DNA of 64,000 bases from Longimicrobiales bacterium. Lineage in GTDB: Bacteria > Gemmatimonadota > Gemmatimonadetes > Longimicrobiales > Gaopeijiaceae. A program made the translations under genes and the position numbers. The DNA is taken from positions 608,001 to 672,000 of the forward strand of contig CBDCNQ010000002.1 in assembly GCA_965219445.1 (NCBI GenBank), given 5' to 3'. Numbering within the stretch: the stretch's first letter is position 1; every line of letters begins with the position of its first letter. Shown piece after piece: positions 6,983 through 53,683 of the stretch. The notes below the pieces were generated by a model that saw only the letters and a program-made list of their open reading frames with translations, searched no databases and was not told where the DNA came from.

Positions 6983-7056
<74 letters not shown>

Positions 7057-7183: not shown

Positions 7184-7538
7184 TCAGAGCGGGTTGACGT
7201 CGCCCCCGCCCCCGCCGCTTCCTTCGGAGCCGGTACCGAGGACGTCGAACCCGAGGATCGTGACGAGCGCTCCGCCGAGCACCACCACTCCAGTCCGCAA
7301 CCAGGAAACGCGCTTTAGCTCCAGCCCAGCGATGTTGGTCTCGGGGACGCGAAGAGTCGACCCCTCTCCGTCGAATCCGACCCCGCTGATCGCATCCAAC
7401 CATGTGGCCGAGAGAATGACATCACCGGCTTCGCGGCGAACCATTTCCCCGTCCACCCTGATGACGTTATTGACGGTGAACTGTGTCAACTCGAAACTGG
7501 ATGGGCGTTCGAGATGTAGGCGGATGGGACTCCCACGG
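7184..7538 (-). pseudogene. 5'-truncated hypothetical membrane protein
   Basis: Protein-like ORF with a C-terminal TM segment and Gly-rich tail; its start is cut by the IS256 left end. Confidence 0.55.
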
Positions 7539-7700
7539 GGAGCTAGGATCAAAGGCATCATAGGGGCATGGCGACCGCTACCGGTACCGATCAGCAGCGA
7601 AGCAGCCCGAAGACGAAGAGGCGTTCTCCTCCGGGAACGGGTGCGCGTTCATCATTGTTCGCGCAAGGAAGCAACCCACCTATCCAAGAGGAGAACGCCC

Positions 7701-8756
7701 ATGGAGAGGTATATCGGACTCGACGCACACGCGTCGAGCTGCACGCTGGGGATTGTAGGCCCCAGCGGCAAGCGCTTGGGCTCGCAGGTGGTGGAGACGA
7801 ACGCGCGGGCGCTGATCGAGGTGCTGCGAGGGATTCCGAGGAACCGGCACTTATGCCTGGAAGAAGGGACGCTGTCGGGGTGGCTGTACGAGGTGCTGAA
7901 GCCGCACGTGGAGGAGCTGACGGTGGCGGGGGTCGGCAAGAGCCGGGGCCCGAAGACCGACAAGCTGGACGCGTTTGCCCTGGCGGAGAAGCTGCGGATC
8001 GGATCACTGGAGACGACGGTCTACAAGAACCGGGGCCAGTTCAGGCGGCTGGGGGAACGGGCGAAGAGCTACGACTTCTTGGTCGGCGACACGGTGCGGG
8101 TGAAGAACCGGCTCAAGAGCGTGCTGCGCTCGAGAGGAGTGGCCTACGGCGCGGGGCGCTCGGTCTACTTAAAGCGCGACCGGGAGGAGTGGTTGGCCAA
8201 GCTGCCGGAAGCGAGCAGGACGACGGCCGGGTTGCTGTACGAGGAGCACGACGCACTCGTGGCATTGAGGGCGAAGGCCGAGAAGGCGTTGCTGGCGGAA
8301 GCACGCAAGCATCGAGAGTGGCATGTGCTGAAGACGTGCCCGGGTCTGGGTCCGATCCGGACGGCGGAGCTCCTGCCGGTGGTGGTGACGCCGTACCGGT
8401 TCCAGAGCCGGAGCAGGTTCTGGGCGTACTGCGGACTGGGCGTCGTGATGCGGAGCTCGTCGGACTGGGTGCGGGGTCCGGGTGGGCGGTGGGTAAGGGA
8501 ACCGGTACAGCAGACGCGGGGGCTGAATCGGAACTTCAACCACACGCTGAAGCGTGTGTTCAAGGGCGCAGCGACGACGGTGATCGGTCGGGCCGAGGAC
8601 GAGCCCTTGTACCGCCACTACGAGCGACTCCTGGAGGGGGGCACGAAGCCGAATCTGGCGAAGCTGACGATCGCGCGTCAGCTCGCCTCGATCGTGCTAG
8701 CGGTGTGGCGCACGGGCGAAGCGTACGACCCCAAGAGACTGGAAGCGACGGAGTAA
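7701..8756 (+). CDS. IS110-family DEDD transposase (recombinase)
   Basis: MERYIGLDAH, CLEEG, KTDKLDA, TCPGLGP, FWAYCGLG; AGAGGAG RBS before ATG 7701. Confidence 0.93.
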   Translation: MERYIGLDAHASSCTLGIVGPSGKRLGSQVVETNARALIEVLRGIPRNRHLCLEEGTLSGWLYEVLKPHVEELTVAGVGKSRGPKTDKLDAFALAEKLRIGSLETTVYKNRGQFRRLGERAKSYDFLVGDTVRVKNRLKSVLRSRGVAYGAGRSVYLKRDREEWLAKLPEASRTTAGLLYEEHDALVALRAKAEKALLAEARKHREWHVLKTCPGLGPIRTAELLPVVVTPYRFQSRSRFWAYCGLGVVMRSSSDWVRGPGGRWVREPVQQTRGLNRNFNHTLKRVFKGAATTVIGRAEDEPLYRHYERLLEGGTKPNLAKLTIARQLASIVLAVWRTGEAYDPKRLEATE

Positions 8757-8833
8757 ACCGGCCTGGGATCGGCGAGCGTGGGGTCGAAAGCGGTCACAAC
8801 ATGGGGTCCGACGAAACGGAAGCGAACCGGTTA

Positions 8834-8960
8834 CAGGGGACAGCATCCATACACACCGTGGGCCGGGGCAGAGAGCCCAAGCCCCCACTCAAAGGCTATG
8901 CACCCCTGGAGAGCCGAACGAAGCGATGGGCCACAGAGTCCCAGATAGAAGGATGGTTCC
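8834..8960 (+). ncRNA. Bridge/seek RNA core (target- and donor-binding loops)
   Basis: Two stem-internal-loop structures containing TACACACC (8850-8857), TCAAAGG (8889-8895) and ATAGAAGG (8945-8952), which match the target and donor junctions. The full transcript may be longer. Confidence 0.8.
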
Positions 8961-9241
8961 CGCTCCAGAGCGGAGAACGCGACGGCTGTGAACGTCTTCC
9001 GGACTGCGATGCGGACCCTGCGAGCGCACCCCTCCCCACCCTGAGTCGTCGACCGGGCAATCCAAACCATGCGGACGCCGACGGTCAAAAAATGAGCCGA
9101 CGGCGCGTGGGGAAGGTGCGTCTTGACCGCCAGCCCCATAGAAGGGTGTGTAAAAAAAGAGGCGACGTACCTTTCCGCTAGGTAGTAAGAAGTTAACCAG
9201 CGAATCCCGGGTGAGCGCCCGGGGGAAAGGAACGATGCCTC

Positions 9242-10486
9242 GTGAGGAAGAATATGGTGGGACCCGAGAGTGAGTCCAGCACGCCGACGTGGGAGTGCTT
9301 GGAAGCGCTGGTTCGTGAGAAGGCCCAGGAGATGGTCCAGCGGATTCTGGAGGAGGAAGTGACGGAGTTGCTCGGCCGGGAGAAGTCGGAGCGGAAGACG
9401 GTCGTAGACCCGGCGCCAGGCTACCGCAACGGCTACGGCAAGGCTCGGCGGCTGGCGATGAGCTCGGGCACGATCATGCTCCGACGGCCCCGGGTTCGAG
9501 GCATTGAGGAGCGGTTCGAGAGTCGGGTGTTGCCGTTGTTCGCACGACGGACGAAGGAGGTGGGTGCTCTGCTTCCGGAGCTGTATCTGCACGGGCTGGC
9601 GGAGGGAGACTTCGAGCTGGCGATGCGGGGCCTGCTGGGCGAGGGGGCCCCGTTGTCGAAGTCTTCGATTTGGCGGCTGCGGGCGGGATGGACAAGGAAA
9701 TTCGAGGAATGGTCGAAGCGCTCGCTGGCCGACCGTGAGGTCGTCTACGTCTGGGCGGACGGGATCTACGTGAAGGCGGGGCTCGAGCGGGACAAGGCAG
9801 CGCTGCTGGTGGTTCTCGGTGCGATGCGAGATGGTACGAAGGAGGTGTTGGCCCTGAGATCGGGCTACCGAGAGTCGGTCGAGTCCTGGTCCGAGGTGTT
9901 GCGGGATCTGAAGGCACGCGGCATCGAGGCGCCCCGGCTTTTGATGGCGGACGGCAACGCGGCGATCTGGGGCGCAGTACGGCAGGTATGGCCTGAGGCG
10001 GGCGAGCAACGGTGCTGGAACCACAAGATGAGGAACGTGCTGGACCGGCTGCCTCAGCGGGAGCAGAGCGAGGCGAAGGACCTTCTCAGGACCGTGGTCT
10101 ACGCACCGAGGCGGTCCGAGGCGCTGAAGGCCCGTGAGGCGTTCGCCAGGCGCTACAGACCGTGGTATCCGAAGGCGGTGGATGTACTCGAGGACGACTG
10201 GGAGCGGATGGTGGCGTTCTACGACTTCCCCGAGGACCACTGGAAGCATCTACGCACGACGAACGTGGTCGAGAGCCCCTTTGCCGCAGTACGGCTCAGG
10301 ACAACGGCGGCGAAGCGCTTCAAGCGGGTCGAGAGCGCTACGGCGCTGATCTGGAAGCTGCTCTTGGTGGCGGAGAAGCGCTTCAGAAGGCTCGACGCTC
10401 CTCACCTCCTCAAGGACGTATTTGAAGGAAGAAAGTTCGAAGACGGAAAGCCCGTCTCAACCCAACAGCGGAAAAACGCCGCCTGA
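9242..10486 (+). CDS. IS256-family (mutator-type DDE) transposase
   Basis: YRNGY, PRVR, LYLHGL, VYVWADGIY, MADG, QRCWNHK, LRTTNVVES motifs. Confidence 0.95.
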   Translation: MRKNMVGPESESSTPTWECLEALVREKAQEMVQRILEEEVTELLGREKSERKTVVDPAPGYRNGYGKARRLAMSSGTIMLRRPRVRGIEERFESRVLPLFARRTKEVGALLPELYLHGLAEGDFELAMRGLLGEGAPLSKSSIWRLRAGWTRKFEEWSKRSLADREVVYVWADGIYVKAGLERDKAALLVVLGAMRDGTKEVLALRSGYRESVESWSEVLRDLKARGIEAPRLLMADGNAAIWGAVRQVWPEAGEQRCWNHKMRNVLDRLPQREQSEAKDLLRTVVYAPRRSEALKAREAFARRYRPWYPKAVDVLEDDWERMVAFYDFPEDHWKHLRTTNVVESPFAAVRLRTTAAKRFKRVESATALIWKLLLVAEKRFRRLDAPHLLKDVFEGRKFEDGKPVSTQQRKNAA

Positions 10487-10516
10487 AACATTTACACACC
10501 TATTGACCCAACCTCC

Positions 10517-10624
10517 GTCGGTATCGGGCTGAGTGCAGAACTCGGGGCCCACTGGTTCAGTGGCCTCGTCACCGCAGGAGAAAATCAGGATCCCGATGGT
10601 AACCGAACGTGTGAGCGTACGCAT
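10517..10624 (-). pseudogene. 3'-truncated putative lipoprotein
   Basis: MRTLTRSVTIGILIFSCGDE with AGGAG RBS; cut by the IS256 right end. Confidence 0.45.
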
Positions 10625-12625: not shown

Positions 12626-12734
12626 CCGACTCTCCTGTGGACGATTGGTTTCCCGTCACATCCGTGAAAACGATGGAGCGCGGGGTCTTGCTTTCGGTTC
12701 GTATCGGGGGGTGATACGGACGTGCTTCGTGCAG

Positions 12735-12808
<74 letters not shown>

Positions 12809-53516: not shown

Positions 53517-53683
53517 TCCTTTCGTAGGATCGATCCTCGACGGACCTTCGGGCAGCTTAGCTGCTCATCGGGGTGCCTAGCGGATGCCATGCCCCTATGA
53601 TGCCTATCCCTGTCGTGGATCTCGCTGGAATCGAGGTTGAAATGAGCAATCGTATGGCGGTGGTTGGTCGAGGCCATGAAGTG

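Follow-up and report, generated by a model that had tools for sequence, protein, structure and literature searches.

The window, which is the whole 64,000-nucleotide stretch of Longimicrobiales DNA that was analysed, contains an IS256-family insertion sequence whose left terminal inverted repeat (IR) is split by an IS110-family element (Table 1). The question raised by this locus is how one transposon comes to lie in the very end of another. A preliminary description, made from the letters alone, proposed that the IS110 element had been directed there by an RNA encoded in its own non-coding end. We put at about 0.9 the probability that this is an intact IS110-family element, situated at a fixed base of the IS256 left IR and placed there by a guide RNA from its downstream end that pairs with both strands.

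Removal of the element joins 7539-7555 to 9146-9154 and restores the 26-mer quoted in the preliminary description, which matches the reverse complement of 10491-10516 at 21 of 26 positions. That IS110 splits the left IR was borne out; the IS256 itself had been given a start at 7539 and begins at 7540, because the base before GAGCTAGG varies among copies, and its IR is 25 bp long. The host shows the marks of its family, namely a Mutator-type DDE transposase, terminal IRs and an 8-9 bp duplication. The IS110 insertion is sequence-specific and oriented, with a short shared core and without terminal IRs; since AAGG is common to 7552-7555 and 9142-9145, the exact boundary can slide.

Table 1. Features of the IS110 element and its IS256 host, in window coordinates
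Feature	Position	Strand	Remarks
Outer 16 bp of IS256 left IR	7540..7555	+	Ends in left target TCAAAGG with shared AAGG core; DNA before it variable among copies
IS110-family element, 1590 bp	7556..9145	+	Boundary can slide within AAGG
Predicted -10 box CATCAT	7556..7561	+	Promoter only in circle with ends joined; motif conserved in relatives
Sub-terminal inverted repeat, left arm, short and imperfect	7563..7573	+	10/11 bases pair with 9128-9137, one gap
Inverted repeat over ribosome-binding site, left non-coding end	7620..7699	+	Arms 7620-7636 and 7683-7699, 88% complementary
IS110 recombinase gene, 351 aa	7701..8756	+	D8, E55, D87, D90, S253; PF01548 and PF02371 above cut-off
Predicted target-binding loop	8835..8907	+	Consensus helices 1-3, changes on both sides
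Right target guide	8849..8858	+	8850-8857 complementary to top-strand GGTGTGTA
Left target guide ACTCAAAGG	8887..8895	+	7/9 to IS256 left IR, at most 5/9 to right IR, 9/9 to off-target site in G000
Predicted donor-binding loop	8911..8959	+	Consensus helices 4-5
Possible short right donor guide GATG, weak	8925..8928	+	Complementary to CATC of left end
Left donor guide	8945..8952	+	Identical to last 8 bases of element
Predicted -35 box TTGACC of circle-junction promoter	9123..9128	+	Motif conserved in relatives
Sub-terminal inverted repeat, right arm	9128..9137	+	
Inner 9 bp of IS256 left IR (right target)	9146..9154	+	
IS256-family transposase, 414 aa, intact	9242..10486	+	NF033543 295 bits against cut-off of 150; PF00872
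IS256 right IR, unoccupied	10491..10515	-	

The window composite has no target duplication of its own (flanks 7530-7539 and 10516-10525), and its right flank matches the left flank of another composite in the same genome (G000:C2:522562). Flank swaps of this kind are seen in about 10 composites and indicate rearrangement between copies or misassembly. A tRNA-Arg(TCT) (6983-7056, minus strand) and a tRNA with a CAT anticodon (12734-12808, minus strand) lie approximately 0.5 and 2.2 kb away, and no link to the insertion was seen.

The recombinase matches PF01548 with 39.7 bits (cut-off 29) and PF02371 with 32.4 bits (cut-off 21.3), and the five residues listed in Table 1 are invariant in 17 of 17 aligned relatives. 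A phmmer search of the PDB with the single sequence gave no hits; a profile of the relatives matched IS621 (E 3e-11) and placed S253 on the serine of the IS621 ESG motif. The full-length match to NCBIfam NF033542 (E 3e-32, 112 bits) falls under the cut-off of 140. The best plasmid matches are annotated IS110 elements of 23-27% identity, and identity to characterised recombinases is approximately 25%. Five of the 22 full copies in this genome (G000) share a 1-base deletion near the end of the gene, giving a 354-aa protein with a different C-terminus.

Of the marks of the IS1111 group, two are present. The guides are located downstream of the gene, in a non-coding right end of 389 nt (the left end has 145 nt), and the segment with the top-strand match (8850-8857) precedes the other (8887-8895), which is the order given for IS1111-type RNAs in the available portion of PMC11187229. 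Two further marks are absent. No near-perfect sub-terminal IR of 11-13 bp lies 7 bp and 3 bp from the ends; the arms here are approximately 7-8 bp from both ends and weaker in relatives, although their purine run covaries in L025, L063 and L075. In place of GL-P----S(T)G the recombinase reads GLGVVMRSSSD, with P and G absent there in 17 of 17 relatives. As it lacks both the repeat and the serine motif, the element is not filed in the IS1111 group; it is an IS110-family member working like the IS1111-type seekRNA elements. Within what the accessible text of PMC11187229 describes, it resembles ISEc11, ISKpn4 and ISPa11 in having a guide-bearing non-coding region downstream of the gene with the top-strand before the bottom-strand match, in a predicted circle-junction promoter and in natural reprogramming between relatives (there ISEc11 and ISXne4). 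It differs from them in its target, in having GLGVVMRSSS and in ends that break the 7 bp / 3 bp rule.

When the ends of the element are joined they give TTGACC, 17 nt and CATCAT, a predicted junction promoter. Scanning the linear element revealed no promoter, as would be expected were it to arise only on circularisation. By analogy with IS621, ISEc11 and CazIS110, the ends would join to form a circle and so create this promoter, and the junction transcript would supply the recombinase together with a two-loop RNA. Of its loops, one would recognise the IS256 repeat and one the right end of the element itself, with strand exchange taking place within the shared AAGG. Each copy would probably have inserted independently into a new IS256 copy, and the splitting of the left IR probably immobilises the host. 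The inverted repeat over the ribosome-binding site has a possible role in translational control. No circle joint was found in four runs, three of them consisting of contigs, which drop rare forms, and no RNA was seen over the guide region in the single RNA run, whose only match was a 286-nt piece of the recombinase gene.

The guides themselves were found where the preliminary description had placed them, with TACACACC at 8850-8857, TCAAAGG at 8889-8895 and ATAGAAGG at 8945-8952 (identical to 9138-9145). When the non-coding end was Markov-shuffled 100,000 times, both target matches arose together in four cases. Its account of the fold needed amendment. CCCCTG of the enclosing stem spans 8903-8908; folding of the single sequence gives the inner GTGGG/CCCAC stem, but this is missing from the 28-sequence consensus, in which the inner helix starts with GG at 8860-8861 and the left guide has 9 nt. 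No Rfam family was matched at the gathering score. In the 28 relatives the right end forms two loops, with 95.3% of cells paired (34-52% when slid) and with changes on both sides in 15 of 31 pairs. Folding and covariation had been suggested as checks: the single-sequence fold was unremarkable, being no stabler than shuffles (z -1.0 and -1.2), and it is therefore the compensatory changes across the relatives that argue for the structure.

If the guides dictate the target, as was proposed, they should follow their own flanks, and this is what was found. The 88 loci with the scaffold contain 45 distinct guide pairs, from which 17 left and 25 right guides were kept after removal of rows that lacked a flank or repeated a guide. 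Left guides matched their own flanks at 5.41 of 7 positions against 3.46 when permuted (n=17), right guides at 5.16 against 3.06 (n=25), and in each case 0 of 20,000 permutations were as good, counts which overstate significance since the relatives are kin. The right guide occurs in three registers among relatives, which were allowed in the test and the permutations alike, and the same element appears to use two registers, one at the IR site and the other at off-target sites. The left donor guide matches the element's own right end at 8/8 positions in five of eight distinct types and at 7/8 in the other three, and the donor segment tracks the right end through a GG-to-CC core change in acidobacterial relatives. 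No covariation support was found for a second donor guide; its segment varies among relatives while CATCAT is constant. The guide RNA had been called fully readable, which is an overstatement, since only some 4 nt (GATG) of the second donor guide pair.

The copies in G000 point the same way. Besides 22 full copies there are one with an internal deletion and a single 5' fragment; the full copies are 98.9-100% identical with identical ends, and their guides are all the same despite 21 haplotypes. The outer 16 bp of the IS256 left IR (1-2 variants) stands before 23 of the 24 IS110 left ends. Every one of the 23 IS256 left ends with an intact site is occupied, and the five empty left ends each have a change in the target, so that no intact empty site is left. 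IS110 was found next to none of 29 IS256 right IRs. The exceptional full copy occupies a site that agrees with the left guide at 9/9 and with the right guide over 6 bases; its target halves are separated by one base fewer.

Near-identical elements were detected in seven further Longimicrobiales genomes of several genera (protein 95-99% identical where measured), a distribution that suggests horizontal spread. Six of these (G252, G253, G254, G255, G236 and G293) hold at least 24 full copies, counted in searches that scored up to 40 candidates per genome. The expectation that other copies would share the site was upheld both in G000, where 21 of the 22 full copies lie at one fixed base of the left IR, and in these six genomes, where 22 of 24 are followed on the right by the inner part of the IS256 IR, the other two lying at guide-like off-target sites. 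All three off-target sites, one in G000 and two in other genomes, are without IS256 and resemble the guides. The predicted uninterrupted left IR also exists, at 19 places distributed over 6 of the 251 Longimicrobiales genomes and in 41 of the 41 empty ends examined in G254. Public runs contain the element too: one labelled as a sponge metagenome has a contig over 7540-9171, and runs X1 and X23 have loose ends at position 9142, which indicate that the empty site exists elsewhere. At the right junction of L002 (= L186) there are 3 extra bases, an imprecise product like the altered empty sites described below.

Several other structures were encountered among these copies. A group II intron of 1900 bp (RVT_1, GIIM; G000:C4:1169767-1171666, L314) has entered the inner part of one IS256 left IR at a distance of 3 bases from the right end of IS110, making three nested mobile elements; the intron has 13 copies in G000, most of them after hairpin-like DNA ending in GTG. 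The right end including the guide RNA is tandemly duplicated, with two copies in G000 (G000:C5:1611142-1613245) and three in G253 (L185). A lone 90-bp fragment resembling the donor-binding loop (89% identical) is located at G000:C5:1023334-1023423 and is also found in G293 (L282).

The same distribution of copies could have arisen had IS110 inserted only once, in the distant past, with the IS256::IS110 composite then spreading under the IS256 transposase and the guides surviving as a relic. Several composites have an 8-9 bp duplication of their own on either side, and in G255 all five IS256-sited copies share one unusual base at the right junction, as this account would have it; the haplotypes are moreover mosaic (of 528 site pairs tested for four gametes, 326 fail), so that recombination blurs the history. 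The duplication is, however, equally expected if IS110 inserts after IS256, and the diversity of the IS110 parts is hard to reconcile with a single event: each of the 11 composites whose IS256 bodies are identical has an IS110 haplotype of its own, with a mean of 16 differing columns, and the copies sit in IS256 types that are 80-97% identical. On these two grounds independent insertion of the copies is likely, as judged from sequence. The three off-target copies, which match the guides without any IS256, and the retention of the catalytic residues in 22 of 22 recombinase genes in G000 also tell against the spread of one composite, which we regard as improbable.

A different objection is that the site might be chosen through direct recognition of DNA by the protein, or through docking on the IS256 transpososome, the RNA matches being incidental. 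The failure to see RNA over the guide region in the one RNA run and the unremarkable single-sequence fold would accord with this, but recombinases that are 95-99% identical carry different guides and lie at correspondingly different sites (L009, G236), the guides covary with the flanks, and the off-target sites have no IS256 on which to dock. We consider targeting by protein the least probable account of all and retain placement by the guide RNA.

The vacancy of the right IR had been provisionally attributed to its mismatch with the left guide, and a natural variant, albeit a single copy, agrees with this. In G001 a relative that is 95% identical carries the left guide ATCACTAGG, which matches the right IR at 7/9 and the left IR at 3/9; its left flank is an IS256 right IR, the IS256 body having been lost, and the left IRs of G001 are empty. 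A search of metagenome contigs for a second right-IR insertion gave 0 matches. Four copies in G236 carry an altered guide; the alteration falls at a position that also differs in three of their target IRs, but it is not compensating. The variant copy in G001 has a 600-bp flank that differs little from that of an empty right IR in G000. Two genomes of different genera share approximately 600 bp, nearly identical, beside an IS256 right IR (L078; G000:C2:599943-600560), which suggests cargo that moved with IS256.

The relatives also indicate where the IS256 target came from. In a tree of 35 recombinases, midpoint-rooted, without a clade test and confined to members of the present clade, the five IS256-targeting rows form a clade (100/100) nested among relatives with GGATAGG guides. 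The right flanks of GGATA-type loci share sequence leading to the 3' end of an IS91-family transposase, a remnant of which lies beside 8 of 22 such loci among those listed, some of them duplicated. In the 30 loci read, the uninterrupted GGATAGG motif stands at the start of conserved sequence and the DNA outside it is variable, which marks a free element end, and an IS91 transposase stands behind 4 of the 15 ends with enough sequence. This end agrees at 17 of 22 bases with the one situated 232 bp downstream of an annotated ISVsa3 transposase; for the related ISCR1 the downstream side is the oriIS side, according to the portion of PMC6218425 available. The closest relatives thus insert 7 bp inside the end of IS91/ISCR-type elements, and it is likely that the IS256 target is derived, the lineage having switched host from such an end by replacing its two target guides. 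Assignment of the sister clade to attC sites was dropped after the IS91 transposase remnants and the ISVsa3 end match were found. The window also holds, at 53546-53602 on the minus strand, a 57-bp left-end remnant from a sister IS110 element (83% identical); before it stands GGATAGG, which the IS91-end clade targets, and no recombinase comes after it.

The empty sites bear on what followed this change of host, and altered empties may be resistant variants, excision scars or both. All empties are altered in G000 (5/5), G255 (10/10) and G253 (1/1). This does not amount to a general rule that empty sites are always altered, since intact empties are kept in the presence of the element in G293 (4/4), G236 (1/1) and G252 (4/5, three sharing one flank); in G176 the IR is altered in 13 of 16 ends examined (of 40), and no element with these guides was found there. 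An arms race is therefore not established. One reading of the whole, which we hold only tentatively, is that this divergent IS110 lineage is specialised on transposon ends, exchanged the IS91/ISCR end for the IS256 left IR through a rewriting of its guides and is now in such a race, IS256 elements with altered IRs escaping and spreading (G255, G000) and guide variants following (G236) or switching IR (G001). The altered empties could instead be the scars of imprecise IS110 excision or junction recombination and not escape variants that were never invaded, a reading to which we give serious weight, if not quite even odds. Three empties in G000 with otherwise identical IS256 bodies show three different changes within 4 bases, none with its own duplication, and two of the three read GAAGG, as does the element's right end; excision of IS621 regenerates its site at a low rate in what is accessible of PMC13626964. 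Against scars, two older empties in G000 have point changes together with duplications of their own, and one altered variant in G255 must have transposed, because its 8 occurrences have different flanks. Many occupied composites likewise have swapped flanks, and no regenerated target is reported in the available parts of the ISEc11 and CazIS110 papers.

Insertion into the end of another transposon has a precedent. IS4321 and IS5075, of the IS1111 group, were reportedly found in the terminal IRs of Tn21-family transposons by Partridge and Hall in 2003. They are likewise IS110-family elements in a terminal IR; here, in contrast, the host is an IS256, only the left IR is used and the sub-terminal repeat is short and gapped, IS4321 being compared by description only. 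ISEc21, of the IS110 group, also targets another IS and differs in that its targets are DDE codons inside IS3-family genes and its RNA lies upstream, so far as the accessible text of PMC11187229 states. The element resembles IS621 and ISCro4, as they appear in the available sections of PMC11208160 and PMC13626964 and in PDB 8wt6 and 9t56, in its DEDD residues and catalytic serine, two-loop RNA and short shared core; IS621 has its RNA upstream and a REP target, and the link to it is detected by profile only and not from a single sequence. The mechanism and IS-on-IS targeting are already known. No report of IS256-IR or IS91-end targeting by an IS110 element was found in searches of the openly accessible literature, nor was the IS91-to-IS256 switch or the altered empty sites, and the searchable supplementary files of PMC11187229 and PMC11208160 contain no mention of IS256, IS91 or oriIS.

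What is added by this locus is the probable host switch, together with the variety of guides and targets that occurs in nature. The case is a clean natural one of RNA-guided parasitism of one transposon on another. Near-identical recombinases carry four different left guides and form an allelic series with on-target, off-target and altered sites, in genomes that range from nearly free of the element to saturated with it. The series bears on natural guide reprogramming, on a possible shutdown of the host IS and on possible scars of IS110 excision, and the recombinase, remote from those characterised, is a new scaffold for bridge recombinases.
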